Part shown: positions 8,372 to 50,166 of the stretch, piece by piece | How the letters are laid out: each line of letters begins with the position of its first letter | Numbering within the stretch: position 1 is the first letter of the stretch | Assembly (NCBI GenBank): GCA_963823415.1 | Contig: CAWGLJ010000009.1 | Coordinates: 247,748-311,747 of the forward strand | From: an uncultured Gammaproteobacteria bacterium | GTDB lineage: Bacteria > Pseudomonadota > Gammaproteobacteria > Steroidobacterales > Steroidobacteraceae | Direction: 5' to 3' | Length of the DNA stretch: 64,000 nt | Notes under the pieces: model-generated | What the model saw: the letters and a program-made list of their open reading frames with translations, nothing else | What the model was told of the DNA's origin: nothing | The model's database searches: none | Program-made: the position numbers and the translations under genes

Positions 8372-8581
8372 CTACGCCAGCTTCTTGACGGCCTGGATCG
8401 CGATCGACGACAGGCCCTCGCCGCCGGCGCTGACGTGACGGCGGATCTCCGCGCGCATGCGCGGCTCCCAGAACTTCTTCATGTGGCCGGCGACCTGCTC
8501 GGCGGCGGCCGCCTTGTCGGGGTCGGAACCGAAGAAGTTCGCGATGTCGTTGGCCATCGTGACCAGGCGCTGGACATTCAT
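8372..8581 (-). CDS. fdsD: formate dehydrogenase delta subunit
   Basis: Intact 69-aa ORF MNVQRLVTMANDIANFFGSDPDKAAAAEQVAGHMKKFWEPRMR.., the typical FdsD family sequence. Last gene of the fds operon. Confidence 0.8.
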   Translation of the reverse strand: MNVQRLVTMANDIANFFGSDPDKAAAAEQVAGHMKKFWEPRMRAEIRRHVSAGGEGLSSIAIQAVKKLA

Positions 8582-8594
8582 CGCCGCGCGCCCC

Positions 8595-11431
8595 TCAGCC
8601 GGCCGTCGCCGTGGCGCCCTTGCGGGTGGTGCGCATCGCGGCGACGCGCTCGCGCCAGGCGTCCGGCTGCGTGACCTTGGCGACCTCGACGGCCGTGACC
8701 TTGTACTCGGGGCAGTTGGTCGCCCAGTCCGAGTTCTCGGTCGTCACCAGGTTCACGCCGGATTCCGGGAAGTGGAAGGTGGTGTACACGACGCCGCGCG
8801 CGATGCGCGTGGTGAGCGACGCGTGCACGACGATCTCGCCGGCGCGGCTCGCGACGCCGACCAGGTCGCCGTGCTTGATGCCGCGGGCCTCGGCGTCGTC
8901 CGGGTGCATCTCGAGGACGTCTTCCTTGTTGAAGACGACGTTCTTCGTGCGGCGCGTCTGCGTGCCGACGTTGTACTGGTACAGCACGCGGCCGGTCGTG
9001 AGCAGCAGCGGGTAGCGGCTGGTCGAGCGCTCCGCGGTCGCCACGTACTCGGTGCGGTAGAACTTGCCCTTGCCGCGCACGAAGCTGCCGACGTGCATGG
9101 TCGGCGTGCCGTCGGGCGCGTTGTCGTTGCAGGGCCACTGGATGCTGCCGAGGCGCTCGAGCTTCTCGTAGCTGACGCCGGTGAAGGTCGGGCGTCAGGC
9201 GCGCGATCTCGTCCATGATCTCGGACGGGTGCGCGTACTCCATCGGGTAGCCGAGCGCCTGCGCGAGGCGCATCGTGACTTCCCAGTCCGCGAGCCCGGC
9301 GAGCGGCTCCATGACCTTGCGCACGCGCGAGATGCGCCGCTCGGCGTTGGTGAACGTGCCGTCCTTCTCCAGGAAGGACGCGCCCGGCAGGAAGACGTGC
9401 GCGTAGCGCGCGGTCTCGACCAGGAACAGGTCCTGCACGACGACGCATTCCATCGCGGTGAGCGCGGCGGCCACGTGGCTCGTGTTGGGGTCCGACTGGG
9501 CGAAGTCCTCGCCCTGGATGTACATCGCCTTGAAGCTGCCGTCGAGCGCCGCCTCGAACATGTTCGGGATGCGAAGGCCCGGCTCGCCGCCGAGCGAGAC
9601 GTTCCAGGCCGACTCGAACACGCCGCGCGCGATGGCGTCCGACACGTGCCGGTAGCCCGGCAGCTCGTGCGGGAAGGAGCCCATGTCGCAGGAGCCCTGC
9701 ACGTTGTTCTGGCCGCGCAGCGGGCTCACGCCGACGCCCTCGCGCCCGAGGTTCCCGGTCGCCATCGCGAGGTTCGCGATGCCCATGACCATGGTCGTGC
9801 CCTGGCTGTGCTCGGTGACGCCGAGGCCGTAGTAGATGGCGCTGTTCGGGCCCGCGGCGTACAGGCGCGCGGCCTCGCGCACCGCGCGGCCGGAACGCCG
9901 CGTGATCGCCTCGGTCGCCTCCGGCGAATGGCGCGGGTCGGCGATGAAGTCCTTCCACTCGCGCCAGGACTTCGACTTCGCAGCGCGCGAGCGCGTAGTC
10001 GTCCTTCGCGAGGCCTTCCGTGACGATGACGTGCGCGAGCGCGTTGATGACCGCGACGTTCGTGCCGGGCCGCAGCTGCAGGTGCTGGGCGGCCTCGATG
10101 TGCGGCGTCTTCACGAGGTCGATCGCGCGCGGGTCGATGACGATGAGCTTCGCGCCCTGGCGCAGGCGGCGCTTGAGCTGCGAGCCGAACACCGGGTGGC
10201 CGTCGGTCGGGTTCGCGCCGATCACGACGACCACGTCCGCCTTCTGCACCGAGGTGAAGGCCTGGGTGCCGGCGGATTCGCCGAGCGTGTGCTTGAGGCC
10301 GTAGCCGGTCGGCGAATGGCAGACGCGGGCGCAGGTGTCGACGTTGTTGGTCAGGAGCGCAGCGCGCACCAGCTTCTGGACGAGGTAGGTCTCCTCGTTG
10401 GTGCAGCGCGAGGAGGTGATGCCGCCCACCGAGTCGCGGCCGTACTTCTGCTGGATGCGGCGGAACTCGCGCGCCGTGTACTCGAAGGCCTCTTCCCAGC
10501 TCACTTCGCGCCAGGGATCCGTGATGCGCGCGCGGATCATCGGCTTCGTGACGCGGTCCTTGTGGGTCGCGTAGCCGTAGGCGAAGCGTCCCTTGATGCA
10601 GGCGTGGCCCTGGTTGGCCTGGCCTGCACGGTTCGGGACCATGCGCACGACGGTCTCCTCTTGACTTCCGCCTTCAGCGAGCAGCCGACGCCGCAGTAGC
10701 CGCAGGTGGTCGCCACCGCGCGCTCGGGCTGGCCGAGCGTCGCGAGCGACTTCTCGCTGAGCGCAGCGGTCGGGCAGGCCTCGACGCAGGCGCCGCAGGA
10801 GACGCACTCGGAGGCGAGGAAAGGCTGGTGCTCGCTCGCGGAGACCCGCGAGCCGAAGCCGCGGCCCTCGATCGTCAGCGCGAGCGTGCTCTGCGTCTCG
10901 TCGCAGGCGCGCACGCAGCGCGAGCAGACGATGCACAGGTCCGGGTTGAAGTCGAAATACGGGTTGCTGACGTCCGGCGCCGCGCCGCGCTGGGTCTGGC
11001 CCTTCGCCCAGCGGGAGTGCGTGACGCCCGTGACTTCCGCCGCGTCCTGCAGCTCGCAGTGGCCGTTGGCGGGGCAGTCGTCGCAGTCGAGCGGGTGGTC
11101 GGAGACGTACAGCTCGACGACGCCGCGGCGCAGCTGCTGGATGCGCGGCGAGTTCGTGCGCACCTTCATGCCGGCCGCGACGGCGGTCGTGCAGGACGCC
11201 GGGAAGCCCTTGCGCCCCTCGATCTCGACCAGGCACAGGCGGCAGGAACCGAAGGCCTTCAGCGAATCGGTCGCGCACAGCTTCGGGAATCTGCGTGTCG
11301 GCGAGCGCGGCGGCGCGCATGACCGAGGTCCCCGCGGGGACGGTCACGGTCGCGCCGTCGATTTCGAGCGTGACGGAGTCGGCCGAGGTGGCCGGCGGCG
11401 TGCCGAGGTCGCGATGGTCGATCGAATACAT
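8595..11431 (-). pseudogene. fdsA: NAD-dependent formate dehydrogenase alpha (molybdopterin/Fe-S) subunit; many frame changes
   Basis: Fragments are found in ORFs 8753-11431 (N-terminus, plus IKGRFAYGYATHKDRVTKPM..CARVCHSPTGYG), 10537-11169 (Fe-S clusters: DHPLDCDDCPANGHCELQ, CIVCSRCVRAC, CVSCGACVEACPT, CGYCGVGCS), 8578-9882 and 8595-9098 (C-terminal molybdopterin-binding domain). At least six frame switches. Confidence 0.9.
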
Positions 11432-12980
11432 CTAGCCTCCTCGCGCCCTGGCCCTGAAGTCTTCCGGGAAGTGCTTCATGGCGCTCTGCACGGGAAAGGG
11501 GGTCATGCCCCCGAGTCCGCACAGGGACGCATTCAACATCGTATCGCAGAGTTCCTCGACCAGGGCAAGTTGCCGGTCACGGTCCTCGCCCCGGCCGGCG
11601 GCCGCCAGCGCCTCGGCGCCGCGGATCGAGCCGATGCGGCAGGGCGTGCACTTGCCGCAGGACTCGATGGCGCAGAACTCCATGGCATAACGCGCCATCT
11701 CGAGCATGTCGACGGTGTCGTCGAAGGCGACCACGCCGCCGTGGCCCAGCAACGCGCCGATGGCGGACAGCGATTCGTACTCGAGCGGCGTGTCGAACTG
11801 CGAGGCCGGCAGGTACGCGCCGAGCGGCCCGCCGATCTGCACCGCGCGGATCGGCCGCCCGCTCATCGAGCCGCCGCCGTAGTCCTCGAGCAGCTCGCGC
11901 ACGGTGAGCCCGAAGGCGCGCTCGACGAGCCCGCCGCGGCGGATGTTGCCGGCGAGCTGCAGCGGCAGCGTGCCGCGCGACTTCGCCTGGCCGTAGTCCT
12001 TGTACGTCGCCGCGCCGTTCGCGAGGATCGTCGGCACGGTCGCGAGCGTGATGACGTTGTTGACGATCGTCGGCGCGCCGAACAGGCCCTTCTCGGCCGG
12101 CAGCGGCGGGCGCACGCGGATCTCGCCGCGGCGTGCCCTCGAGGCTTTCCAGCATCGAGGTTTCCTCGCCGCAGATGTAGGCGCCGGCGCCGAGGCGCAC
12201 TTCCAGGTCGAAGGCCTTGCCGCTGCCCAGCACGTCCGCGCCGAGCAGGCCGGCCTCGCGCGCGACCGCGATCGCGCTGTTCAGGACCTTGTACGCGTGC
12301 GGATACTCGACGCGCAGGTAGACGTAGCCCTTCGTCGCGCCGACCGCGACGCCGGCGATCGTCATGCCCTCGATGAGCGAGAACGGGTCGCCTTCCATCA
12401 GCATGCGGTCGGAGTAGGTGCCCGAGTCGCCTTCGTCGGCGTTGCAGGTGACGTACTTCTGGCCGGGCGGCTGGCGCAGCACGGTCTGCCACTTGATGCC
12501 GGTCGGGAAGGCCGCGCCGCCACGGCCGCGCAGGCCGGACTCCAGCACTTCGTTGACGGTCGCGTCGGGCCCGAGTTCGATGGCGCGCGCGAGTCCCGCG
12601 TAGCCGCCCGAGGCGCGGTAGGCCGCGAGGTCGAGCGGATCGATGCGGCCGACGCGCGCGAAGGTCAGTCGCTGCTGCGAGGCGAACCAGGGATGCTCCT
12701 CGATCTTGCCGAGGCGAAGCGGATGCGCGGCGCCCTTCAGCAGCCCCTTCGCGACGAGATCCGGCACCTCGCGCTCGGTGACCGGGCCGTAGGCGATGCG
12801 GCCGTCTGCGCACTCGACTTCGACCAGCGGCTCGAGCCAGTAGAGCCCGCGCGAGCCGTTGCGTCGGACCTTGATCTCCACGCCCGCGGCGCGGGCTTCC
12901 GCGACCAGGCGCTTCGCGGTCGCTTCCGCGCCAAGCGCGAGCGCCCCCGCGTCGCGCGGGATCCAGACCGTGACGCTCAT
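11432..12980 (-). pseudogene. fdsB: NAD-dependent formate dehydrogenase beta (NuoF-like flavoprotein) subunit; one frame change
   Basis: The N-terminal two thirds lie in ORF 11577-12980 (GLRGRGGAAFPTGIKW, CNADEGDSGTYSDR, AYICGEETSMLESLEG). The C-terminus lies in ORF 11432-12115 (ESCGKCTPCR, LCGLGG). The switch is near 12115-12135. Confidence 0.9.
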
Positions 12981-13471
12981 GACTTCACTCCGGCCTTTGC
13001 GTCGAGCAGCGCATCGAGGCGTTCCGGCGTCACGCGCCCGTGGACTTCGTCATCGAGCATCGCGGCAGGCGAGCAGGCGCAGAGACCGAGGCAATAGACC
13101 GCCTCGAGCGTGACCCGCCCGTCCGGCGTCGTCTCGCCGAAGCCGATGCCGAGCCGCTTCTGCGCGTGCTGCTCGAGCGCCTTGCCGCCGGCGGCCTGGC
13201 AGGACTCCGCGCGGCAGACCTGCAGCACCTGCCGGCCCGCCGGCCGGGTGCGGAAGTGGTGATAGAAGGTGACGACGCCGTGCACCTCGGCGCGCGAGAG
13301 GTTGAGCGCGCGCGCGAGCACGGGCACGGCGCCCGGCGGCACGCAGCCGAAGGCCGCCTGCACGTCGTGCAGGATCTCGATCAGCGGGCCGTCCTGGTGC
13401 CGGTGCTGCGCGACGATCGCGAGGATCCGGCCCTCATCGACCTGGCCGGCCGGCGCGGCGACGGCGCTCAT
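12977..13471 (-). CDS. fdsG: formate dehydrogenase gamma (NuoE-like 2Fe-2S) subunit
   Basis: Intact 164-aa ORF with the thioredoxin-like 2Fe-2S pattern (CRAESCQAAG ... CLGLCACSP). ATGA overlaps on both sides. Confidence 0.85.
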   Translation of the reverse strand: MSAVAAPAGQVDEGRILAIVAQHRHQDGPLIEILHDVQAAFGCVPPGAVPVLARALNLSRAEVHGVVTFYHHFRTRPAGRQVLQVCRAESCQAAGGKALEQHAQKRLGIGFGETTPDGRVTLEAVYCLGLCACSPAAMLDDEVHGRVTPERLDALLDAKAGVKS

Positions 13472-14304
13472 TGCAGGCGCTCCCGGTGGGCATAGACATT
13501 GAAGGAGCGACCGCGCAGGAAGCCGACCAGCATGATGCCGGTGCGCTGCGCGAGGTCGATGGCGAGCGAGGAGGGCGCGCCGACCGCGGCGACCACGGGG
13601 ATGCCCGCGGCGGCGGCCTTCTGCAGCAGCTCGAAGCTCGCGCGTCCCGACAGGAACAGGACGCTGTCCGAGAGCGGCAGCTCGCCCGCGAGCAGGCGCG
13701 CGCCGACGAGCTTGTCGAGCGCATTGTGGCGGCCGACGTCCTCGCGCACGTCGAGCAGCCGGCCCTCGGCGTCGAACAGGCAGGACGCATGGAGTCCGCC
13801 GGTCTCGCGGAACACGTCCTGGCCCGCACGCGCGCGGTCCGACAGGGATTCGATCAGCGCGGTCGAGACCTGGAGTTTTCCGTCCACGCTCGGCGAGCGC
13901 AGCATGCGCTCGACGGCGGCGAGCGAGGCGTTGCCGCAGACGCCGCAGCTCGAAGTCATGTAGAAGTGGCGCTGCAGCTTTGCGGCATCGAAGTCGACGC
14001 CCCCGGCGAGCTGGATCCGCACGATGTTGCCGTCCAGGCCGCTGATGCGGCTGCCGGCGACGTCCTCACGGGACCGGACGATGCCCTCGCCGTGCAGGAA
14101 GCCGACCGCGAGCTCGACATCGTGCCCGGGCGTGCGCATCGTGACCGACAGTGAAGTTCCCGGTCCTTCGTCGCCGGCACCGGCGACGCGGATCTCGAGC
14201 GGCTCCTCGACGACCACCAGGTCCTGGCGCGCGATCAGGTGCTCGTCCCGCATCGCATCGATCGGAACCTGCCGCACCGAATCGAGGTGGTGCTGTGCGC
14301 TCAT
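13468..14304 (-). CDS. fdhD: formate dehydrogenase accessory sulfurtransferase FdhD
   Basis: 278 codons from ATG 14304 ([12 protein letters not shown]...). Conserved SSCGVCG and GRHNALDK motifs. The longer ORF-track start at 14706 is an Arg/Pro-rich over-extension into the upstream gene. Confidence 0.85.
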
Positions 14305-15818
14305 CGCGGCCGGCGACCCGAGCGGCGACGTTGCAGCGGGGCTTCCGCCAGGGCGTGGTCGGGCGGCGGCGGCAGGACCGGCAGTTCCTTCTGGTCCTTC
14401 AGGCCCGACATCACGATGCGGCGCATCTCGGCATCCACGGCAGCGTCGGTCGGGATCTCCACCCAGGCCGCGAGGCGCTTCTCGACCTGTTCGACGGCGC
14501 GGGACTGCAGGTCGCGCGATCCCTGCTTGATCCAGGTTTCGCGATTCTCGCGGTCGATGACCGGGTCGGTCAGGTACAGCTCCTGCGGCCAGTACTTGAG
14601 CGTGTGCGGCGAGGTGATGAGGTGATCGTTGGCGCGCACTTCCGCGACGAGATTGCCGCAGGGCACGTCCTCCAGCACCTTCGTCTCGCGCACGAAGTTG
14701 AGGCACTGGCCGCAGACCTCGTTGTCGAACAGCAGCTTCGCCAGGCTGAAGGTCAGCACGAAGTCGAGCATGCCGGGGCCGGAAACGGAGTTGACGCCCG
14801 CGAGCGCGGCCAGCAGCGCGCTCGACATCGTCTCGGCGCCCGCCTGGGCATCGAGGAACTTGCCGTCCGAGAGCGCCATGTAGGCCTGGGTCGGCAGGCC
14901 GAGCGACTTCGCGATGGCGACATAGCCGACGTTCAGCCGCTGCGCCTCGATCGCCGCCATCGGCGCGCTCGCGGCGCGCATGTGGAAGGTCGCGGGCGCG
15001 CCGCCGAACAGCACCGGCGCGCCGGGCTTGATCACCTGCGCCATCGTGATGCCGGTCAGCACGTCCACGCAGTGGAAGACCAGGGCGCCCATCAGCGTGA
15101 CCGGCGCGATGAGGCCCATCAGCGTGACCGGCACGATCTCGACCGGGATGCCGGCCTCGACGCAGTCGAGCAGGTTCTGGCAGGAGTCCTCGCCGAAGCG
15201 GAAGTTGCCGGTCGCCGTGATCGTGAAGATCGACATCGGCTTCGCGATGAGCTCCGCGCGGTCGCGGCGGAAGAGCTGCATCATCTCCGCCATGCGCGGC
15301 ACGCCGTGCTCGCCGAAGGCGCCGGAGACGACCGGCTTCTTCGTGTTCGTGAGCACCATGTAGAGCCGCCAGACGTCGGAGACCTGCGGCTCGATGTCGG
15401 CGTTCGTCGAGAACGCCGTGGCGAGGTAGGGAATGTGCGGCAGGCCGTCGCAGAGGCGCGCGTACTCGACGAAGTCCGTCGAGTCCGCAAGGCGCGTCTC
15501 GCCCGTGCGGTGGTCCATGATCTTGAGGCCGCTGGAGCCCGGGATGAAGTGCACGTTCCAGCCGCCGATTTCCGCGTGCGGCTCACCGTCGCGGTTGTAG
15601 AGCGTGAAGGACTTCGGCGCGGTCGCGATCGCGCGGTCCACGACCGCGGTGGGGAAGAGCACGCGGCCGGTCGCATCGGTCGGCAGGCCCGCGTCGATCA
15701 GGCGCTGGCGCATCTTCGCGCCGCGGATCTCCATGCCGGTCTCGGCCATGATCCGCTTCGCCTCGGCGAGCACCGCGGCGATCTGGTCAGGCTCGAGAAT
15801 CTGGATCGTCGGTCTCAT
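14301..15818 (-). CDS. MttB-superfamily (trimethylamine methyltransferase-like, no in-frame amber codon) methyltransferase, probably acting on a quaternary amine
   Basis: Intact 505-aa ORF with full-length MttB-family look ([60 protein letters not shown]). The stop TGA overlaps the fdhD ATG (ATGA at 14301-14304). Confidence 0.8.
15087..15140. repeat. in-frame 27-bp tandem duplication inside the mttB-like gene
   Basis: gcccatcagcgtgaccggcgcgatgag / gcccatcagcgtgaccggcacgatctc: 23 of 27 positions are identical and the first 19 are contiguous. It encodes [18 protein letters not shown]. Confidence 0.8.
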
Positions 15819-15854
15819 TTCACGACTTCCCCCGTTGCGCTGCGGCCGGGCTTA

Positions 15855-15870
15855 TTGTACGATCGTTCAA
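15855..15870. promoter_or_regulatory. 16-bp near-perfect palindrome TTGTACGATCGTTCAA in the 54-bp divergent spacer; candidate operator of the adjacent BetI-like TetR regulator
   Basis: 14 of 16 positions are symmetric around a perfect ACGATCGT core. It lies 3 nt before the Rieske ATG and 37 nt from the mttB-like start. Confidence 0.4.
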
Positions 15871-15872
15871 CA

Positions 15873-17063
15873 ATGAATGCACGTATCCATGCCGACCGCT
15901 CCGCCACCCCCGATCTTCGCACAGAAGACGATTTCAGCCTGCCCGGCTGGACCTACTGGGACCCCGAGTTCTTCGAGCTCGAGCGCCAGGTCGTGTTCAG
16001 GAAGAGCTGGCACCTGGTCTGCCACGTCAACGACCTGCGCGAGGCCGGCGATTACCTGACCTTCAAGTTCCTGAACGAGTCGATCCTGACCGTGCGGGGC
16101 ACGGACGGCCGCGTGCGCAGCTTCCATAACGTCTGCCGGCACCGCGCCGCGCGCCTCGTGAACGGGGAGCAGGGCAACTGCGGCAAGCGCATCACCTGCC
16201 CGTACCACGCCTGGACCTATTCGACCGACGGTCGCCTGGTCGGCGTGCCGCTGCGCGCCAGCTACCCGGGCATGCAGACCGAGGACTACGGCCTCGCCGA
16301 GGTCGAGCAGGAGATCTGGCGCGGCTTCGTGTTCGTGCGCTTCGCGCCGGGCCTGCCGTCGGTCAACGACCAGATGGCGCCGTACGCGGCCGAACTCGCC
16401 GGCGCACCGCTCGAGGACCTCGTGCCGCTCGGCCCGCCGCGGGTGCAGACGCGCCACGTCAACTGGAAGAACGTCGCGGACAACTATTCCGACGGCCTGC
16501 ACATCCCCGTCGCGCACCCGGGCCTCATGCGCATCTTCGGCAAGAGCTACGCGATCGAGGCGCGCGAGTGGGTGGACAAGATGTCCGGCGAGCTCGTCGA
16601 GCACGATTCGCCGCACGCCTCCGAGCGCATGTACCAGAAGCTCATGCACGACATGGGCCTCGCCGAGGGCGCGAAGTGGGCCTACTACAAGCTCTGGCCG
16701 AACGCGGCGATCGAGCTGTACCCGGACCAGATCGACTTCATGCAGTTCATCCCGGTCTCGCCGACCGAGACGCAGCTGCGCTACATCAACTACGGGCTGC
16801 CGGACGGGCGGCGCGAGATGAAGGCCGCGCGCTACCTCAACTGGCGCATCAACCGGCTGGTGAACCTCGAGGACAAGGACCTGATCGAGCGCGTGCAGGC
16901 CGGCATGGCGTCGTCCAGCTACACGGTCGGCCCGCTCGGCGAGGGCGAGGTGTGCCTGCGCAGCTTCGGCCGGCGCATGCGCGCGCTGTTCCCGGAGGCG
17001 CGCGAGGGCGCGCCGCCGCCGAAGGGCTGGAGCATCAACCGCAAGGCGCCGCGGCCCCAGTGA
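15873..17063 (+). CDS. Rieske [2Fe-2S] non-heme-iron oxygenase, alpha-subunit type
   Basis: 396 codons from ATG 15873. The upstream part of ORF 14151-17063 is antisense read-through. Rieske motif [16 protein letters not shown]; mononuclear iron motif [14 protein letters not shown]. Confidence 0.85.
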
Positions 17064-17680
17064 GCGGCGCGGCCCGCAAGCCCCGCTACGAGCGCCAGGT
17101 CGCGAGCGACCGGCGCGAGGCGCTGGTGGACGCGGCGATCGAGAGCCTGAAGCGCTACGGCTACGAGGGCCTGTCGGTGCGGCGCATCGCGGCCGAGGCC
17201 GGCGTCTCCATCGGCCTGATCAACCACCACTTCCCGAACAAGGACACGCTGGTCGCCGAGAGCTACCGGACGTTCGGGCGCCGGCTCGCCGCGAACTTCG
17301 AGGCGGCGGTTGCGGCCGCGGGCCCGGACCCGCGCGCGCGGCTGCGCGCCTACCTCGACGCGTTCTTCTCGGGCCCGAACCTCAACCCGCAGGTGCTGAC
17401 GGCCTGGGTCGTGTACTGGAGCCTGGTGCAGGTGTCGCCGGAGATGAGGCGGTGCGCGACGAGGAGGGCAAGGGCTACAGCGAGGTGCTCGGGCAGCTGC
17501 TGTCCGACCTCGCGCAAGCGCGCGGCGGCACTGTCCGTGGACCTCGGCCTCGCCGTCACCGGCCTCACCGCGCTGCTCGACGGCCTGTGGCTGCAGCTCT
17601 GCCTCGATCCCACGAGCATCCGCCCGAAGGACGCCGCCGCGCTCTGCGACGACTGGGTCGACCGCGTGGTCGGCGCCTAG
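17060..17680 (+). CDS. TetR-family regulator, BetI-like; the ORF is open but an internal segment (~17445-17525) reads better in another frame
   Basis: HTH: [29 protein letters not shown]-terminus: [16 protein letters not shown], as in BetI. The middle in-frame text [24 protein letters not shown] is implausible, while the alternative frame gives [28 protein letters not shown] overlap with the Rieske stop. Confidence 0.7.
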
Positions 17681-19369
17681 AACAGCCCGGTAATCTTCCC
17701 GTCGTCGGTCACGTCGATGTTGTTCGCCGCCGGCGTCACCGGCAGGCCCGGCATCGTCATGATGTCGCCGCAGATCATCACGATGAACTCCGCGCCGGCC
17801 GCGAGGCGCACCTCGCGGATGTTCACGACGTGCCCGTGCGGCGCGCCGCGCAGCTTCGGGTCGGTCGAGAAGGAGTACTGGGTCTTCGCCACGCAGACCG
17901 GGTAGTGGCCGTAGCCCGATTCCTGGAGCTGCTTGATCTGCCCGCGCACCTTGCTGTCGGCCGTGATCTCGGCGGCGCCGTAGATCTTGGTCGCGACCGC
18001 CTTCATCTTGTCCCAGAGCGTGTCCTTGTCGTCGTAGACGAACTTGAAGTAGTTCGCGTGGCTGCACAGCTCGACGACTTCCTTCGCGACGTCGACGGCG
18101 CCCTTGCCGCCCTCGGCGTAGTGCTTCGCGACGATGACCTTCACGCCGTGGTGCGTCGCGCGCTCCTGCAGCCAGTTGAGCTCGGCCTCGCTGTCCTCGG
18201 CGCGGTGGTTGATCGCGACCAGGCAGGGCAGGCCGAAGACGTCGCGCACGTTGTCGATGTGGCGGTCGAGGTTCGCGATGCCGGCCTGCAGCGCCTTCAG
18301 GTTCTCCTTGCCGAGGTCCGCGACTTCGACGCCGCCGTGGTACTTGATCGCGCGCACCGTCGCGACGATCACCGCGGCGGCGGGCTTCAGGCCCGCCTTG
18401 CGGCACTTGATGTCCACGAACTTCTCGGCGCCGAGGTCGGCGCCGAAGCCGCCCTCCGTGACCACGTAGTCGGCGAGCTTGAGCGCCGTCTTGGTCGCCA
18501 TCACCGAGTTGCAGCCGTGCGCGATGTTCGCGAACGGGCCGCCGTGGATGAAGGCCGGGTTGTTCTCGAGCGTCTGGACCAGGTTCGGGGCGAGCGCGTC
18601 CTTCAGCAGCGCCGCCATCGCGCCCGCGGCCTTGATGTCGCGCGCGTGGATCGGCTTCTGGTCGCGCGTGTAGCCGACCACGATCTTGCCGAGGCGCTCC
18701 TTGAGGTCCTTGAGGCTGGTCGACGAGGCAGAAGATCGCCATGACTTCGGAGGCGACGACGATGTCGAAGCCGTCCTGGCGCGGGAAGCCGTTGCCCGGG
18801 CCGCCGAGGCCGACCGTGATGTCGCGCAGCGCGCGGTCGTTGCAGTCCACGACCCGCCGCCAGGTGATGCGGCGCACGTCGAAGCCGCAGGCGTTGCCGT
18901 GGTGGATGTGGTTGTCGATCATCGCCGCGAGCAGGTTGTTCGCGAGCGCGATCGCCGAGAAGTCGCCGGTGAAGTGGAGGTTGATGTCCTCCATCGGCAC
19001 GACCTGGGCGTAGCCGCCGCCCGCCGCGCCGCCCTTCATGCCGAACACCGGGCCGAGCGCCGGCTCGCGCAGGCAGATGATCGCCTTCTTGCCGATGCGG
19101 TTCAGCGCGTCGCCGAGGCCGACCGTCATCGTCGTCTTGCCTTCGCCCGCCGGGGTGGGGGAGATGGCGGTGACGAGGATCAGCTTGCCGTCCTGCTTGC
19201 CCTCGAGGTGGGTGCAGTAGTCGAGCGAGATCTTGGCCTTGTAGTGGCCGAAGGGGGAGAGGTGCTCCTCAGGGATGCCGAGCCGCTCCTTCGCGAGCGG
19301 AACGATCGGCTTCATCTTGGCGTGCTGGGCGATCTCGATATTGCTGAGGCTTCCCTTCGACGGCGGCAT
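17677..19369 (-). pseudogene. fhs: formate--tetrahydrofolate ligase; one frame change
   Basis: The N-terminus lies in ORF 16919-19369 ([14 protein letters not shown].., [28 protein letters not shown]). The remainder lies in ORF 17677-18681 ([16 protein letters not shown] ... PGLP). The switch is near 18690-18730. Confidence 0.9.
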
Positions 19370-19552
19370 GGTTTCTTGTCCCGGCTTGAAAAAAAGAGTG
19401 CGTAGGATGCCTGCAAGGCGTCCGTTTTGCCATTTGGACGGATGTCTGGCGGTAGTGGGGTCGAACTTCAGCCCCGATTAAGTCAGGTCCGATTCGACTG
19501 AGCCGGAACAACGACTTGACAGGCGGGCGGATGATATTCGGCTGGGAATGAC

Positions 19553-19593
19553 GTAAAACATTGCGTCAGGTTCAGACCCAACAGACGTTAGAC
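19553..19593 (+). repeat. degenerate attC remnant ending in a canonical core site GTTAGAC (19587-19593)
   Basis: GTAAAAC-ATTGCGTCAGG...CCCAAC-AGAC-GTTAGAC resembles the ends of attC1/attC2 but is too short and pairs poorly. GTTAGAC is the exact complement of R'' of attC1. Confidence 0.35.
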
Positions 19594-19608
19594 CACATCG
19601 GAGGTTTG

Positions 19609-19863
19609 GTGCTAGAACTTCGGCCGGGTTGCGAGTGCTGTGATGTCGACCTGCCGCCAGATGCGACAGATGCCTACATTTGTAGCTTCGAGTGCACTTT
19701 CTGCCGTTCATGTGCGGAAACCAGACTTCACGGCAAGTGTCCGAATTGCGGAGGCAAACTGATGCAGCGTCCTCCTCGACCTATCGAATTGCTTCAGCGG
19801 CATCCGGCATCGACCCGTCGCACTTTCAAGCCGTCCGGTTGTCCGCCGCGCGATGCGGTCTAA
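19609..19863 (+). CDS. DUF1272-type small Cys-rich (zinc-ribbon-like) protein, cassette-borne
   Basis: GTG 19609 is preceded by GGAGG. Sequence: LELRPGCECCDVDLPPDATDAYICSFECTFCRSCAETRLHGKCPNCGGKL. The stop TAA lies inside the attC1 inverse core GTCTAAC. Confidence 0.7.
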   Translation: MLELRPGCECCDVDLPPDATDAYICSFECTFCRSCAETRLHGKCPNCGGKLMQRPPRPIELLQRHPASTRRTFKPSGCPPRDAV

Positions 19864-19983
19864 CTATGCGTTGGAGCGGTCCGTGAGAGCTTGCGGGTGG
19901 CGCGCCGCAGGCGCGCGAAGAGATTTTACGCCTGCGGCGCGCTGCAACGGCCGCACGTGCGCCGCTCAACGCGGACGTCAGAC
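19858..19983 (+). repeat. attC site 1 (126 bp)
   Basis: GTCTAAC-TATGC-GTTGGAGCGG...CCGCTCAAC-GCGGAC-GTCAGAC. It has an RYYYAAC inverse core and a GTTRRRY-like core, and its arms pair with one unpaired G. The central part carries a 12-bp perfect hairpin (19902-19913 / 19929-19940). Confidence 0.7.
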
Positions 19984-20004
19984 GTCATTCAGCTTGGAGG
20001 TTGC

Positions 20005-20437
20005 ATGAGGCGATTATTGATCTTACTGGTGGCGGCTCTGGGACTCGTCACCGCCGAGGCCGCGACACTCCAGGCCGATGCAGACGTCCGCGCGTTTGCT
20101 GATCGCGTCATGGCAAAGGTCGCGAAGGCCGATCTGCCAGGTGCGTTCGCCGAAATGAAGCCGTACACCATCATCCCGCCAACGGAGTTCGATGCGGCTG
20201 CACTTCAATCGAAGTCGCAGCGCGACCTGGTTGGCACGCGCTTTGGCGCCACGATTGGCTATGAATTCATCAGTGAGAAACGCAGCGGCCAGTCCTTGTT
20301 GAAGCTGACATATATCGAAATGACGGAGCGCCATGCCATACCGTGGATTTTCTACTTCTATAGATACGCCGGATGGCTGGGTACTGAATTCCTTCTTCTG
20401 GCACGATCGAATGACGGATCTGCTGACTGGTCAATGA
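20005..20437 (+). pseudogene. hypothetical secreted protein (signal peptide), cassette-borne; one frame change near 20371
   Basis: ATG 20005 follows GGAGG. Signal peptide MRRLLILLVAALGLVTAEA. After ..IPWIFYFYRYA the alternative frame reads DGWVLNSFFWHDRMTDLLTGQ* and stops at 20435-20437, 1 nt before attC2. The uncorrected ORF instead runs into attC2 and ends at 20481. Confidence 0.55.
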
Positions 20438-20438
20438 C

Positions 20439-20518
20439 ACCTGACCATGCGTTGGAGCAGTCCGTGAAGCCTTGCGGGTGACGTGCCCCGAGCAGCCTGC
20501 TCGACGCGGACGTTAGGA
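20439..20518 (+). repeat. attC site 2 (80 bp)
   Basis: ACCTGAC-CATGC-GTTGGAGCAG...CTGCTCGAC-GCGGAC-GTTAGGA. It has the same architecture as attC1 with a shorter variable centre. There is a compensatory arm change relative to attC1 (GAGCAG:CTGCTC versus GAGCGG:CCGCTC). Confidence 0.7.
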
Positions 20519-20526
20519 GGGATGAC

Positions 20527-20688
20527 GTGGCGAAGTGGCACCCTTGCTCCGATGTGGGTGCATTCATTCGCCATGGGGCAGGTTGCCGGGCATTACTTCA
20601 GGAAGGTCGAGTCGTTAATGACAACGCCTTGTACGTTTTCAAGGCACTCAGTCAGGAACTGGTGCGCGCAAGAATCAAAGTCAGGTGA
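20527..20688 (+). CDS. candidate 53-codon ORF at the start of the next cassette-like unit (unknown function)
   Basis: GTG 20527 lies 6 nt after a perfect AGGAGG (20515-20520). It encodes MAKWHPCSDVGAFIRHGAGCRALLQEGRVVNDNALYVFKALSQELVRARIKVR and ends 3 nt before the DUF302 ATG. It is below the ORF-track length cutoff and I recognise no homology. Confidence 0.25.
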   Translation: MAKWHPCSDVGAFIRHGAGCRALLQEGRVVNDNALYVFKALSQELVRARIKVR

Positions 20689-20691
20689 TCC

Positions 20692-21075
20692 ATGTACTAC
20701 CTCGTTGAGACCGGAAAATCATTCGACCAGGCGGCGGCAGATCTTGAAGCGGCAGTCAATCGCCTGGGCTTCGGAGTCCTGCATGTCCACGACCTGGGCA
20801 CCACGCTTCGGAGCAAGGGGATTGCATTTGAAGAGCAGTGCAAGGTTTTCGAGGTCTGCAATCCAAAGCAGGCTGCCAGGGTGTTGTCCACCGACATGCG
20901 CCTGAATATGGCCTTGCCGTGTCGCATATCGGTGTTCACGGAGAAGGGCAAGACGAAGATCGGCCTCATCAAGCCCGTGCAGATGCTTTCGGCCCTGTCG
21001 AAGGATGCGGCGTTGGTACAGGTTGCCAACGAGGTCGAGGCAAAGACCATTCAGATGGTCGACGAAGCGAAATGA
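20692..21075 (+). CDS. DUF302 domain protein
   Basis: Intact 127-aa ORF MYYLVETGKSFDQAAADLEAAVNRLGFGVLHVHDLG...FEVCNPKQAARVL..MALPCRISVF, the typical DUF302 sequence. Confidence 0.8.
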   Translation: MYYLVETGKSFDQAAADLEAAVNRLGFGVLHVHDLGTTLRSKGIAFEEQCKVFEVCNPKQAARVLSTDMRLNMALPCRISVFTEKGKTKIGLIKPVQMLSALSKDAALVQVANEVEAKTIQMVDEAK

Positions 21076-21105
21076 TGACGCAGCTTGCTGCGTAAGGACA
21101 GATCG

Positions 21106-21426
21106 ATGCTCACTTCGACAACGTTCGAGATAACCGGAGCGCGAACCGTGAAGTCATTGGGAGTGGTTCGCGGAATCACCGTCAGGACGCGGTCGCTTCC
21201 CATGACCATCGTCGGTGGAATTCGCACGATATTCGGCGGCAAGGCCGGCATCTTCACGACGCTGTGCGAAACAGCCAGGGAGGAGGCTTTCGAGCTCATG
21301 AAGGCGCACGCAAAGCAGCTGGGCGCCAATGCCGTGGTTGGGGTCCGGTATGACACCGGCCCAATGGTCGGCGCTGCAGAGGTCTTGTGCTACGGCACCG
21401 CTGTCCTCATCGAGCCAGCTTCGTGA
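21106..21426 (+). CDS. ybjQ: YbjQ/UPF0145 family (putative heavy-metal-binding) protein
   Basis: MLTSTTFEITGARTVKSLGVVRGITVRTRS...[40 protein letters not shown]...LCYGTAVLIE, with a full-length family look. Confidence 0.8.
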   Translation: MLTSTTFEITGARTVKSLGVVRGITVRTRSLPMTIVGGIRTIFGGKAGIFTTLCETAREEAFELMKAHAKQLGANAVVGVRYDTGPMVGAAEVLCYGTAVLIEPAS

Positions 21427-21851
21427 CGCTCGCGCAATCGCGCGACCAACTCATACGCCTGGCTGTGCTTCTGATGGTGTATCTGGTCGCCAGCCTCCTG
21501 CACTTCGCGCATAACGCGGAATTCCTCGGCGACTACCCCAATCTGCCGACCGGGCTGACTCGGTCGGATGTCTATTTCGTCTGGATGGGGCAAGCGGCCA
21601 TCGGGGTGGTCGGCTTTGCTCTCTATCTCCGCGGTCGGCAGACGCCTGGTCTCCTGCTCATCGGACTCTTCGCTGCCTTCGGTTTCGACGGACTCCTCCA
21701 TTACTCCCGGGCTCCCTTCGGCGCACACACGGTCGCAATGAATTTCACGATCTGGTTTGAGGTCGCCGCCGCTGGCGTGCTGCTGGTCGCCGTGGTATTT
21801 GCGCTCGTTAGACGCCGGTATGGCGCGCCGGTTTCCCCTGGCGTACCGTAG
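21423..21851 (+). CDS. hypothetical integral membrane protein (about four predicted helices)
   Basis: The GTG at 21423 overlaps the ybjQ stop (GTGA). Hydrophobic segments: [55 protein letters not shown]. Confidence 0.55.
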
Positions 21852-21895
21852 CGGCCGGCCGGACCCAGATCCGGGCGTCTCAACAGGGGGGTGGC

Positions 21896-22593
21896 ATGAA
21901 CAAGTATTTCGCCGAGTTCTTCGGCACGTTCTGGCTGGTGCTCGGCGGCTGCGGCAGCGCGGTGCTGGCGGCGGCGTTTCCCGAGGTCGGCATCGGCCTG
22001 CTCGGCGTCTCGCTCGCCTTCGGCCTCACGGTCCTGACGATGGCCTTCGCGATCGGCCACATCTCCGGTTGCCACCTCAACCCGGCGGTTTCCATCGGGC
22101 TCTGGGTCGGGCGGCCGCTTCCCGGCGAGCCAGCTCGTCCCGTACATCGTCGCCCAGGTGCTCGGCGGCATCGTCGCGGGCGGCGTGCTCTACCTGATCG
22201 CGAGCGGCAAGGCGGGCTTCGACGTCATCGGCCGGCTTCGCCTCGAACGGCTACGGCGAACACTCGCCGGGCGGGTACTCGCTGCAGGCCGCGCTCGTCA
22301 CCGAAGTCGTGATGACGATGATGTTCCTGGTCATCATCCTCGGCGCGACGGACAAGCGGGCGCCGCAGGGCTTCGCGCCGATCGCGATCGGCCTCGCGCT
22401 GACGCTGATCCACCTCATCAGCATCCCGGTGACCAACACCTCGGTGAACCCGGCGCGCAGCACGGGCGTCGCGGTGTTCGTCGGCGACTGGGCCGTCTCG
22501 CAGCTCTGGCTCTTCTGGGTGGCGCCGATCCTGGGCGGCATGCTCGGCGCGGTCGTCTACCGGATCATCGGCGGCAGCGGCGACCGAGCCTGA
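21896..22593 (+). pseudogene. aqpZ: aquaporin Z; at least two frame changes
   Basis: [23 protein letters not shown]...[17 protein letters not shown] lies in ORF 21896. [37 protein letters not shown] lies in the frame of ORF 22158. [15 protein letters not shown]...[13 protein letters not shown]...[12 protein letters not shown] lies in ORF 22309-22593. Both NPA boxes are present. Confidence 0.9.
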
Positions 22594-39607: not shown

Positions 39608-40300
39608 ATGCGCTACGGACTTCCCGCCCTGCTGCTGCTTTCCTGCGGTTTCTTCGCGGACTCGGCCCCGGCCGAGAGTCCGGCTGGCGGTGCCGACGTC
39701 CTCGCGGACCGGATGCTCGCCGCGATCGGCGGGCGAGAGCGCTGGGCGAGTCTGCGCAACACGGTCAACGACTCGCTGCAGTTCCGGCTCGAGGAGCCAT
39801 TCGTGGTGCGGGCCGTGATCCGCATGGATTTCACGCAGCCGCGCTTCCGGGTCGACACGACCGCGCCGGGGCTCACGCTCGCGCGCGTGATGGACGGCGA
39901 GCGCCACTGGCGGCTGAACCGGGCCGGTGTGGTGGAGGACGTGCCGGCCGAGATCCTTGCGGAGGACCGGCGCTGGCATGCAGGGCACGTGTACCGCACG
40001 ATCCATCGCGTCGCGGCGCGTGACCCGGCGCTGCGGGTGGCCGTCAATGACAAGGGACGGCTCGAGGTCCACGAGGGCGCGGCGCGCATCGCCTGGTTCG
40101 CTCTCGACGCGCGCGGCGAGCCCTATGCCTTCGGCGCGCACGACGACGAGGTCGGCAGCATCAGCGGCCCGTGGAATTTCGTCCAGGACGGCATCCACCA
40201 TCCCGCCTGGGTCGCGCGGCCGGACGGCAGCTGGCGCGCCGCCGTGCAGGCGCTCGCGATCAACGCGGAGTTCAACGAGGCCGACTTCGCGCGCCCGTAA
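39608..40300 (+). CDS. hypothetical secreted protein
   Basis: Intact 230-aa ORF with a signal peptide MRYGLPALLLLSCGFFADSAPA. I recognise no family. Confidence 0.55.
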   Translation: MRYGLPALLLLSCGFFADSAPAESPAGGADVLADRMLAAIGGRERWASLRNTVNDSLQFRLEEPFVVRAVIRMDFTQPRFRVDTTAPGLTLARVMDGERHWRLNRAGVVEDVPAEILAEDRRWHAGHVYRTIHRVAARDPALRVAVNDKGRLEVHEGAARIAWFALDARGEPYAFGAHDDEVGSISGPWNFVQDGIHHPAWVARPDGSWRAAVQALAINAEFNEADFARP

Positions 40301-40347
40301 CGAAGGGACGAAAAGGGGGCTCCCCTTCGATTTCCCCTTCGTTACGG
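40295..40347. terminator. nested bidirectional hairpin between convergent genes
   Basis: A 13-bp perfect outer stem ccgtaacgaaggg / cccttcgttacgg encloses both stop codons (TAA at 40298-40300 and TAA at 40342-40344 on the reverse strand). The inner hairpin GAAAAGGGGGCTCCCCTTCGATTT has A/T tracts on both sides. Confidence 0.55.
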
Positions 40348-41623
40348 CATCAGGTCCCGGAGCCGGAACCAGGTCATGGCGGCGACCAGGGTCGGGCGGC
40401 GGAACAGCTTGCCGCCCGGGAAGTCCTGGTGCTTCAGTCGCGCGAAGACGTCGAAGCGCTCCGCCTGGCCGGCGATCGCCTCGGCAGCGATCTTGCCGGC
40501 GATCGGCGCGAGCAGCATGCCGTGGCCGGAGTACCCCTGCAGGTAGTACACGTTCGGCGCGAGCCGCCCGAAGTCCGGCGCGCGGCTCATCGAGATGTCG
40601 ATCATCCCGCCCCAGGCATAGTCGATCTCGACGTCGGCGAGCTGCGGGAACACCTTGAGCATCCGCTGCCGCGTCGCACGGGCCGTGCCGAGCGGGTCGA
40701 CGCCCGAGTAGCTGACGCGCCCGCCGAACAGCAGGCGGTGGTCGGACGAGAGCCGGTAGTAGTCGATGATCCAGTTGAGGTCTGCGATCGCGACGTTGTC
40801 CTTCAGCAGCGCCCGCGCGCGCTCCGCGCCGAGCGGCTTCGTCGCGACGATGTACGAGGCGACGCCGATGTTCCGGCGCGCCAGCGGGCGCGAGAGTTCC
40901 TCGTGCCCGACGTTGGCGCACAGCGCGACGAACTTCGCGCGGACGCTCCCCTTGTCCGTGCGTACCGTGACGGTCGCGCCATGCTCGACTCTGCGTGACG
41001 CGGCTGTGCTCGTGCAGGCGCACGCCCGCGGCGACCGCGGCCCGGCCGACCCCGAGTGTGAAGCGCAGCGGATGCAGGTGGCCCGCGCCGCTGTCGAGCA
41101 GTCCCGCGAGGTAGCGCTCGCTCGCGACCCACTGGCGCACTTCGTCCCGTTCCATGAAGCGGAGCAGGCGATAGCCGTAGTCGCCTTCCTGCTCGCGCTG
41201 CCATTCGAGCAGCTCCTCGCGCTGGCGCGGCTTGATGCCGACGTGCATGTGGCCCCAGACGAGGTCGCAGTCGATGCGGTTCTTCGCGACCAGGTCGCGC
41301 GTCAGGCCGACGGCCTCGACGCTGATGTCCCACAACCGCTTCGCATCGGCCTTGCCGAGCTGCGCGGCGAGCTTCGCCATGCCGCAGGCATAGCCGGGAA
41401 TGATCTGGCCGCCGGAGCGCCCGGAGGCGCCGTAGCCGACGCGGTCGGCCTCGAGCAGCACGACCTTGTAGCCGCGCTCGGCCAGGTGCAGCGCGGCCGA
41501 GCAGCCGGAGAGCCCGGCGCCCACGACGCAGACGTCCGCCTCGACGTCGCCCTCGAGCGGCGGCGCGGGGGCGCCGCGGCCGGCGGTCGCCTCGTACCAG
41601 CTGTCGGCGGGCCGCAGGATCAC
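40342..41623 (-). pseudogene. puuB: FAD-dependent gamma-glutamylputrescine oxidase-like oxidoreductase (PuuB/PauB type); frame changes
   Basis: N-terminus DVCVVGAGLSGCSAALHLAERGYKVVLLEA...GRSGGQ lies in ORF 39569-41623. The C-terminus MLKVFPQLADVEIDYAWGGMIDISMSRAPDFGRL..YLQGYSGHGM lies in ORF 40342-40662, and the middle lies in a third frame. Confidence 0.8.
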
Positions 41624-43002: not shown

Positions 43003-43014
43003 GCGTCACCGGGC

Positions 43015-43030
43015 GTTTAAAATCTTGTAT
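43015..43030. promoter_or_regulatory. A/T-rich box GTTTAAAATCTTGTAT, 13 nt upstream of the spuI-like start
   Basis: It shares GTTTAAAATC with 1753-1762 and GTTYAAAAT with 43229-43237. Confidence 0.4.
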
Positions 43031-43228
43031 CGCGAGCCGGGGGTGGCCGCAAGGCAGGATAACCAGCCCCCCTTGCCGCGGGCAAGGTTCATGCAGCGCA
43101 ACATAATCGGGTCAAAATGCCCCCTTGAGGGCTGACAGAACGGGCCCCGGGCCTGCCAAGCTGCGGGGCGCCGCACCCCCTGGTTGTGAGACAATGGACC
43201 CCGTGAACAGGTCTCCATACCGGGGACC

Positions 43229-43246
43229 GTTCAAAATAATTAACAG
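43229..43246. promoter_or_regulatory. A/T-rich box GTTCAAAATAATTAACAG abutting the spuA-like start codon
   Basis: It has the same GTTYAAAAT core. Its ATAATTAACA part matches ATAATTGACA at 1707-1716. Confidence 0.4.
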
Positions 43247-45337: not shown

Positions 45338-45353
45338 GAGCGGGGGAACTGCC

Positions 45354-46741: not shown

Positions 46742-46754
46742 GGAGGACAGGGGA

Positions 46755-47882: not shown

Positions 47883-47886
47883 CCGC

Positions 47887-49002: not shown

Positions 49003-49011
49003 TTCTCGCGC

Positions 49012-50144: not shown

Positions 50145-50166
50145 ACTCCCGGTCCAAGGGGGAACC

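Follow-up and report, generated by a model that had tools for sequence, protein, structure and literature searches.

Why should the gene of a methyltransferase stand at the head of a formate dehydrogenase gene string, back to back with an oxygenase and its regulator? The arrangement in question lies in a 64-kb stretch of DNA from an uncultured soil-type Steroidobacteraceae bacterium (hereafter the window, whose positions serve as coordinates throughout), where a gene of the MttB superfamily, the product of which belongs to a clade that we call MttB-S, is directly followed by fdhD and the genes of an NAD-linked formate dehydrogenase (fdsGBAD), and is faced by genes for a Rieske oxygenase and a BetI-like TetR repressor. 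The first-pass annotation had tied this methyltransferase to tetrahydrofolate (THF)-linked one-carbon (C1) oxidation and formate dehydrogenase, and the comparative evidence supports the link: the gene order is conserved, sister loci combine MtgC, MtgD, RACo, MetF, MttB, Fhs, FolD and FdhD-Fds, and one palindrome is shared among them. We therefore favour, with a probability of roughly 0.6, the reading that the locus forms half of a regulon under repressor control which would demethylate a methylated (probably quaternary) amine and oxidise its methyl groups to CO2.

The predicted pathway runs as follows. Without inducer, the TetR protein would sit on the palindrome and block both divergent units; with inducer, MttB-S would transfer a methyl group of the substrate to the Co(I) of an MtgC-type corrinoid protein, an MtgD-type enzyme would pass it on to THF, and a RACo/DUF1638 pair would keep the cobalt reduced. 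MetF, FolD and Fhs would then carry C1 units in the oxidative direction, from methyl-THF to formate with a gain of ATP, and FdsGBAD, matured by FdhD, would oxidise formate to CO2 with reduction of NAD+ to NADH. The Rieske enzyme would take off other methyl groups as formaldehyde, which would end in the same formate pool. With mttB on the same transcript as fds, the entry of methyl groups would be kept in step with the capacity for formate disposal, and a rearrangement in a hypervariable chromosomal interval between rlmL and fhs may have put mttB directly before fdhD-fdsGBAD, the corrinoid genes lying elsewhere in the genome.

Gene order, packing and reading frames

The gene string was checked by open reading frame listing, a codon-position G+C plot (the window has a G+C content of ~70%) and profile searches with Pfam and NCBIfam. 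On the minus strand, mttB (14301-15818, 505 aa, Pfam PF06253) is the first cistron, followed by fdhD for the formate dehydrogenase sulfurtransferase (13468-14304; NF001943, 286 bits against a cutoff of 269), fdsG for the gamma subunit (12977-13471; NF004638, 237 bits against 198), fdsB for the beta subunit (11432-12980; Pfam Complex1_51K and NADH_4Fe-4S in two frames, tblastn), fdsA for the molybdopterin alpha subunit (8595-11431; NCBIfam Fdh-alpha, tblastn pieces in four frames, phase plot of third-position G+C, GC3) and, as the last cistron, fdsD for the delta subunit (8375-8581; PF11390, E 3e-25, tblastn), so that a complete FdsGBAD set and its FdhD sulfurtransferase lie within one string. 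The mttB/fdhD junction is an ATGA overlap (14301-14304), read directly from the sequence, and the coordinates give two further ATGA overlaps, fdhD/fdsG at 13468-13471 and fdsG/fdsB at 12977-12980, a gap of 0 nt between fdsB and fdsA and one of 13 nt between fdsA and fdsD. Between these cistrons there are thus only 4-nt overlaps or gaps of 0-13 nt, with no terminator-like sites beyond chance, and the ATG of mttB is preceded at 7 nt by a strong Shine-Dalgarno sequence, GGGGGAAG. We infer that mttB-fdhD-fdsGBAD is co-transcribed as one unit.

On the plus strand and 54 bp from mttB, the divergent gene for the Rieske [2Fe-2S]/mononuclear-iron oxygenase alpha subunit (15873-17063, 396 aa, Pfam Rieske and Ring_hydroxyl_A) is joined by a GTGA overlap to the gene of the BetI-like TetR repressor (17060-17680, TetR_N and BetI-type TetR_C_6), which is convergent with fhs for formate--tetrahydrofolate ligase (17677-19369, minus strand; PF01268 (FTHFS) in two frames, tblastn). 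The 54-bp divergent gap holds a 16-bp palindrome, TTGTACGATCGTTCAA (15855-15870), which is the candidate operator of the TetR protein. Coordinates and profiles agree with the first-pass annotation both on the minus-strand packing, with its overlaps and gaps, and on the divergent Rieske-tetR pair with the convergent fhs. The ATGA coupling that it stressed is present in the window and is not universal, a gap of ~10-30 nt replacing the mttB/fdhD overlap in some relatives; gene order and tight spacing are otherwise kept in relatives at 88-98% identity.

The gene identities given at first pass also stood, and what had been overlooked were single-base insertions and deletions (indels) in fdsA, fdsB, fhs and tetR, placed here relative to L006, a metagenome contig at 96% DNA identity. 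fdsB is broken by a 1-nt insertion at ~12134; fdsA has four net frame changes at ~11288, 10659, 9970 and 9189 (GC3 phase plot, tblastn and comparison with L006); fhs is frameshifted at ~18716; and in tetR a compensated indel pair (~17449-17535) puts ~30 residues out of frame. The five net frameshifts of fdsAB, the single one of fhs and the scrambled part of tetR might mean that these genes are true pseudogenes of a decaying pathway in this organism. We consider this very improbable, because FdsB (515 aa) and FdsA (944 aa) are intact on L006, to which the synonymous divergence (dS) is only 0.09, and because comparable breaks run through the whole window, where ~143 coding-like fragments stand for ~60 genes: aqpZ is split (profile search; 21815-22590 is among the broken stretches listed), and argG, potF and other genes look broken when the fragments are read by eye. 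The indels are probably errors of an unpolished long-read assembly, which is the simpler account.

Neighbourhoods of the orthologs and the probable methyl acceptor

If the methyl groups are to reach THF, what would accept them from MttB-S? The answer comes mainly from the relatives, whose loci, together with metagenome contigs, were annotated by tblastn with a reference set. MttB-S has more than 120 relatives at ≥77% identity, of which the named sources are all Steroidobacteraceae or Gammaproteobacteria, and at least 553 loci in species-representative genomes, the best 80 of which are all from metagenome-assembled genomes of Steroidobacteraceae or Woeseiaceae. In ~30 species, orthologs at 73-85% identity sit in operons of the order MtgC-DUF1638-(PF13769)-MtgD-RACo-MetF-(MttB')-MttB, where MttB' is a paralog. 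At the type-B locus L001 (see below), the corrinoid protein finds its best NCBIfam match in the glycine-betaine MtgC models, below their cutoffs; the methyl-THF:corrinoid methyltransferase scores above its NCBIfam cutoff; the activase is of the AcsV/RACo type (NCBIfam); the MetF match is weak; and a DUF1638 gene lies among the corrinoid genes. Most of the corrinoid operons also keep, between their DUF1638 and pterin methyltransferase genes, a conserved small gene of the PF13769 ('Virulence_fact') family (L001 5875-6192 and equivalents).

Several types of architecture can be told apart, and they often share one chromosomal site, between rlmL-cho and fhs. The window type, type A (Fhs> TetR< Rieske< MttB> FdhD FdsGBAD rlmL<), occurs at L004-L007, L009, L012-L014 and L088, with partial versions (type A') that lack either fds (L008, L010) or the Rieske gene and fdhD (L011). 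Type B (L001, L015, L016, L021) has a left arm, TetR< AO1< AO2< GcvT<, in which AO1 and AO2 are amine oxidases, and a right arm, MtgC DUF1638 PF13769 MtgD RACo MetF MttB Fhs> FolD< FdhD FdsGBAD and then rlmL<, so that the corrinoid operon continues into Fhs, FolD and FdhD-Fds. Type C, a hybrid at L019, carries Fhs> TetR< AO1< AO2< GcvT< divergent from MetF MttB' MttB FdhD FdsGBAD and likewise continues into FdhD-Fds; type D (MtgC...MetF-MttB'-MttB) is found in ~25 mostly Woeseiaceae species; type E is a solitary mttB; and type F (L089-92) is a corrinoid operon without fds that ends at rlmL. L102 has the flanks of the window with only Rieske-TetR between rlmL and fhs.

From these relationships we presume that the acceptor of MttB-S is most likely an MtgC-type corrinoid protein encoded outside the window, because the corrinoid operons of the orthologs match the published aerobic MtgBCD gene set (Mausz et al. 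2025, PMC12478193). The methyl acceptor, which had been left as an open question at first pass, is thereby largely accounted for. The partner is assumed rather than seen, since no corrinoid genes were found near window-type loci and no MtgC homolog on their contigs, and this belongs to a set of observations that weigh against our reading. With the proteins of a relative as queries, tblastn found no corrinoid protein, pterin methyltransferase, activase, MetF or FolD in the 64-kb window; motif regular expressions, rather than a full Pfam scan, returned no B12-binding or plant-type ferredoxin motif there, and on the missing corrinoid protein, corrinoid:THF methyltransferase and activase these searches agree with the first-pass annotation. 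The 10 kb on either side of the window-type loci are likewise free of genes for a corrinoid protein, pterin methyltransferase, activase, MetF or FolD, and the 120 best MtgC homologs include none from a known window-type contig. An MtgBCD-type arrangement, with the corrinoid set encoded near the MttB gene, is accordingly found neither in the window nor, within these 10 kb, in its window-type relatives. To these are added mttB without fds (L008, L010), fds without fdhD (L011) and the corrinoid operon without fds (L089-92); the frameshifted fdsA, fdsB and fhs of the window as given; and a sigma-70 consensus scan that called no promoter.

The missing corrinoid genes would also fit an orphan or repurposed methyltransferase, if window-type lineages had lost the dedicated corrinoid set and MttB-S passed its methyl groups to something else, be it free cobalamin, the cobalamin domain of MetH or a new kind of acceptor, or had taken another job; its binding-site residues, which resemble neither those of MtgB nor those of MttB, point the same way. 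We regard this as unlikely, because the stretch inspected per relative was only ~20 kb, the genes of the corresponding system are scattered in Ruegeria too, and orthologs at 75-85% identity stand in corrinoid operons, with a sequence that is strongly conserved.

The same loci bear on the history of the arrangement. In a neighbour-joining tree of the MttB proteins, the window type forms a single clade nested among the corrinoid-linked types; types B and F are its closest sisters, L019 comes next, and the other corrinoid-linked types fall outside. Therefore, the window arrangement is derived, lineage-specific and stable across species; dS within the type reaches ~0.4 across species, and the ratio of nonsynonymous to synonymous divergence (dN/dS) of mttB within the clade is 0.08-0.23, which indicates purifying selection. 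The survey of mttB and fdhD/fds co-occurrence suggested at first pass thus shows an order kept across this monophyletic clade, together with variants that have no fds or no fdhD, and because sister lineages hold one part alone, the physical link between mttB and fds is not obligatory.

The rlmL-cho to fhs interval is in its own right a mosaic hot spot, with at least six combinations in related genomes (L102, L008, L010, L011, L089-L092, L001, L019) of Rieske, amine oxidase/GcvT, corrinoid operon, mttB, fdhD and fds modules. Two lineages of Fhs, ~50% identical, are also met (window 17677-19369 and L001 11536-13167), one convergent with tetR and the other inside the methyltransferase operon, depending on the architecture.

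Could the mttB-fdhD junction then be a mere by-product of deletions and recombination in a hypervariable interval, perhaps with a shared transcript and without any selected functional coupling? A mosaic of at least six architectures between rlmL and fhs, including a lone mttB, fds that lacks fdhD and loci devoid of mttB, is what such neutral adjacency would leave behind, and so is the opening of the ATGA overlap into a gap in some relatives. Against it, C1 genes (the two fhs lineages, folD, metF and fds) recur beside mttB-S in three independent architectures, and the window type persists at dS ~0.4 with mttB under purifying selection. We rate neutral adjacency as the less probable account, though the most serious of the alternatives to a regulon for methyl oxidation.

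Substrate class, probable operator and putative demethylase modules

Which methylated compound would MttB-S act on? The protein matches PF06253 with E 9.7e-78, its residues 3-468 aligning to profile positions 29-491 of 500, and is thus a full-length member of the MttB superfamily. It scores 297 bits against a cutoff of 525 with TIGR02369, the model of pyrrolysine MttB. Its closest solved structure is Methanosarcina barkeri MttB (PDB 7XCL, E 7e-51), to which it is about as distant as to Desulfitobacterium hafniense MtgB (~4e-49), and Sinorhizobium meliloti 4yyc is further away (1e-33). It shares with M. barkeri MttB an active-site loop, N-x-x-x-G-x-G-M-L, of equal length. Previous work showed that in this pyrrolysine enzyme Tyr364 and Gly110-Thr111 act with Pyl334 (PMC9842639). 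In the 7XCL alignment Pyl334 corresponds to Leu316 of MttB-S, Tyr364 to Ser346 and Gly110-Thr111 to Ser95-Ser96, and the gene has no in-frame UAG; a pyrrolysine-dependent trimethylamine methyltransferase was therefore rejected. The clade forms one 50%-identity cluster, and in a search of 1.84 billion cluster representatives the next full-length relatives were 38-40% identical; this placement rests on members that have Protein Data Bank (PDB) entries and on the 50%-identity representatives.

The Rfam model PYLIS_3 scores above its gathering threshold at 14774-14870 (minus strand), starting right after the codon aligned with Pyl334, and also matches in the orthologs L001 and L093, and not in the paralog MttB'. 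It was rejected as a functional element, as without a UAG the match tracks protein-coding homology. Beyond the Pfam domain, a conserved Pro/Arg-rich C-terminal tail, LPxLPPPPEH...RRRxGRRPR (window 14301-14440, minus strand), is present in all MttB-S orthologs, regardless of gene neighbourhood.

The most obvious candidate would be glycine betaine, with MttB-S simply an MtgB and the locus an ordinary glycine betaine catabolism. For this speak the BetI-like regulator, a Rieske protein that partly matches the GbcA model, the corrinoid protein of the relatives, which best matches MtgC models, and the published aerobic system, which acts on glycine betaine (PMC12478193). However, D. hafniense MtgB contacts glycine betaine by Y97, R312, H348 and F356 (PMC13080624), and these residues align to S95, Q311, a gap and V354 of MttB-S. 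Moreover, the paralog MttB', encoded upstream of the MttB-S ortholog in many loci and only ~25% identical to it, has retained the Arg and His, and its similarity to 4yyc (7e-102) and MtgB (1e-89) is much greater than that of MttB-S, at 1e-49; as both paralogs stand in one operon, different substrates are suggested for them. It is thus improbable that MttB-S is a glycine betaine methyltransferase. Our guess, made with low confidence, is that its substrate may be a quaternary or otherwise charged methyl donor without the contacts of a betaine carboxylate.

Is the locus under a common control? The palindrome TTGTACGATCGTTCAA extends to TTATTGTACGATCGTTCAACAA and has one match in the window, where 0.01 would be expected. 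As the element TTGAACGATCGT(A/T)(C/T)AA (also written TTGWACGATCGTWYAA) it directly precedes the leading gene of the methyltransferase operon in more than one architecture, and it is conserved upstream of the operons in 29 loci. It is found in types A, C and F and in the Steroidobacteraceae loci of type D, with two copies in type B and two in type F, and no match was found in the Woeseiaceae type-D loci L060-L086. Within the 1.66 Mb of fetched loci it occurs only upstream of methyltransferase operons, and in L100 and L102 a copy stands before the Rieske gene as well. A metagenome scan with the 19-mer returned at least 120 stretches; among the 80 listed, 52 precede Rieske(-CrtI-like amine oxidase)(-TetR) cassettes, 10 belong to the window type and 4 are near a distant MttB homolog. 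In two of these four (L116, 3636-8082; L169, 1186-9418), Pfam scans place the 19-mer before a gene for a DgcA/trimethylamine-dehydrogenase-like flavoprotein, behind which comes the gene of a canonical-scoring MttB homolog; in addition, L116 carries a BetI-type TetR gene, and L169 a Tdm-like DUF1989-GcvT gene and an amino-acid permease gene.

Since the palindrome recurs before these operons and before the soil Rieske-amine oxidase-TetR cassettes, we predict a single regulon of the BetI-like TetR devoted to demethylation of methylated amines, with the palindrome as its probable operator. On the mttB strand, a TACAAT lies inside the palindrome (15854-15859), with ~29 nt and the GGGGGAAG ribosome-binding site ahead of the ATG; in our own reading it is a plausible -10 box of mttB, in which case a repressor bound at the palindrome would block mttB transcription. 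The repressor itself stays below the cutoffs of both BetI models, with 109 bits against 201 and 108 against 118, and is 27% identical to Escherichia coli BetI. With the choline-responsive E. coli BetI (b0313, bet operon) it has in common the BetI-type TetR_C_6 domain and a repressor gene next to its own divergent operon. The half-sites TTGAAC/GTTCAA bear only a loose resemblance to TTGGACGTTCAA in the E. coli betI-betT gap, where the spacing differs by 4 bp, and we found nothing usable on a BetI operator consensus in the literature.

The cassette in which the palindrome is combined with genes for a Rieske oxygenase, a CrtI-like amine oxidase and a BetI-like TetR is widespread in soil (L100 7957-11484; 52 of the 80 stretches listed, L103-L182) and is an observation of its own: its 19-nt putative operator is identical to that of the window, and we found no description of its function.

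Group V Rieske oxygenases, among them CntA, Stc2 and GbcA, act on quaternary ammonium compounds (PMC10952381, PMC7948474), and the best PDB match of the Rieske protein of the window is CntA (E 4e-38 over both domains), with Stc2 fifth. It shares with this group the CxH...CxxH (motif at 16134-16208) and His-His iron motifs and a Tyr aligned with CntA Tyr203, so that motifs and nearest similarity place it with the quaternary-ammonium enzymes. Against CntA, the identity is ~30%, Glu205 is replaced by Asp, and the Cys-X-X-Cys pair found in some group V members (Cys206/Cys209) is replaced by Gly and Ile. The first-pass assignment to the GbcA/CntA/Stc2 kind holds in that CntA is the closest solved structure, although the score with the GbcA model, 134 bits, is far below the cutoff of 670. 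No ferredoxin-reductase-type motif that would mark a reductase partner was found in the window.

In sister loci, two CrtO/CrtI-like FAD oxidoreductases (the amine oxidases AO1 and AO2) and a GcvT-like protein, whose best family match is the THF-binding part of trimethylamine N-oxide (TMAO) demethylase, occupy the place of the Rieske gene, and in L100 and most soil matches the Rieske gene is paired with an AO2-like oxidase (44% identity). The Rieske enzyme and the FAD oxidase/GcvT pair thus look like interchangeable modules for the oxidative removal of further methyl groups.

Two regions of the window lie outside this system. Between fhs and aqpZ (19400-22000), the G+C content is lower (0.60-0.65) and the coding signal weak; the region holds a DUF302 gene and a 196-aa open reading frame, which matches no Pfam family and seems to begin with a hydrophobic, signal-like N-terminal stretch, and is unlike the corresponding region of the relative L088. 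At ~39800-53300, translations read by eye suggest a putative putrescine/polyamine catabolism block, with PuuA-, PuuB- and PuuD-like genes, an aminotransferase gene, four tandem potF paralogs and potGHI, along with arginine biosynthesis genes and a branched-chain keto-acid dehydrogenase cluster.

Relation to published systems

How much of this was known before? Ruegeria pomeroyi and other marine bacteria use an aerobic, cobalamin-dependent MtgBCD system for glycine betaine, in which a single MtgC is shared by several MttB paralogs, the gene set can be dispersed and methyl-THF is fed into THF-linked C1 oxidation (PMC12478193). The underlying system, aerobic corrinoid-dependent demethylation that feeds THF-linked C1 oxidation, is already published. 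In both cases an MttB-family methyltransferase is found in an aerobic proteobacterium, and the loci of the MttB-S orthologs share with the published system an MtgC-like corrinoid protein, a pterin-binding MtgD, DUF1638, a RamA/RACo activase and a MetF paralog. In contrast to MtgBCD, the MttB of the window belongs to a different clade and is without the glycine-betaine-binding residues, its gene stands apart from the corrinoid genes and together with fdhD-fdsGBAD, and the locus adds the BetI-like TetR, the conserved palindrome and the Rieske oxygenase; formate dehydrogenase is not mentioned in the MtgBCD paper. The quaternary amine methyltransferases of anaerobes, MtgB, MtcB, MtpB and MtyB, are likewise members of the MttB superfamily without pyrrolysine (cited in PMC8604678, PMC13080624). 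MtgB-type enzymes resemble MttB-S in the full-length PF06253 domain, the lack of pyrrolysine and the expected corrinoid acceptor, and differ from it in that the MttB-S host is aerobic, the fate of the methyl group would be oxidative, the similarity is ~1e-49 and the four binding residues are not conserved.

As for the formate dehydrogenase, our full-text literature searches found no description that places an MttB gene within or next to an fds operon, nor any of MttB/fds families in Steroidobacteraceae or Woeseiaceae, in agreement with the first-pass annotation, for which no described case of an MttB-family gene as the lead cistron of such an operon was known. The soluble NAD-dependent FdsGBA(C)D of Cupriavidus necator and Rhodobacter capsulatus has its gamma, beta, alpha and delta subunits and an FdhD/FdsC-type sulfurtransferase encoded in one operon. 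The packing of the subunit genes is shared with the window, where, unlike in these two bacteria, fdhD is upstream of fdsG and the methyltransferase gene leads the operon. The locus thus looks like a compact variant of the published aerobic methyl-oxidation route for methylated amines, in which the distinct clade of the enzyme, the modular make-up of the locus and a defined putative operator appear to be new.

A wider reading, which we put forward only tentatively and as rather doubtful, extends this to the whole clade. MttB-S might be a widespread aerobic corrinoid methyltransferase (at least 553 Steroidobacteraceae/Woeseiaceae loci), with a substrate that is neither glycine betaine nor trimethylamine, in a TetR/palindrome regulon where demethylase modules (Rieske oxygenase, CrtI-like FAD amine oxidases with GcvT-like protein, DgcA-like flavoproteins) are swapped at one site and wired directly to formate dehydrogenase, and the lineage of the window may even work without a dedicated corrinoid operon.

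It was only in 2025, and only for glycine betaine in marine bacteria, that aerobes were recognised to demethylate methylated amines in a cobalamin-dependent way. The locus described here directs attention to a second MttB clade, distinct in sequence and abundant among the Gammaproteobacteria of soil and sediment. The operon structure itself links MttB-S to complete oxidation of the methyl group (Fhs, Fds), and the candidate repressor, together with a precise candidate operator sequence, makes the regulon, and probably the inducing compound, directly testable. If our reading is true, it would add a route, and marker genes, for the turnover of methylated nitrogen compounds in soils.

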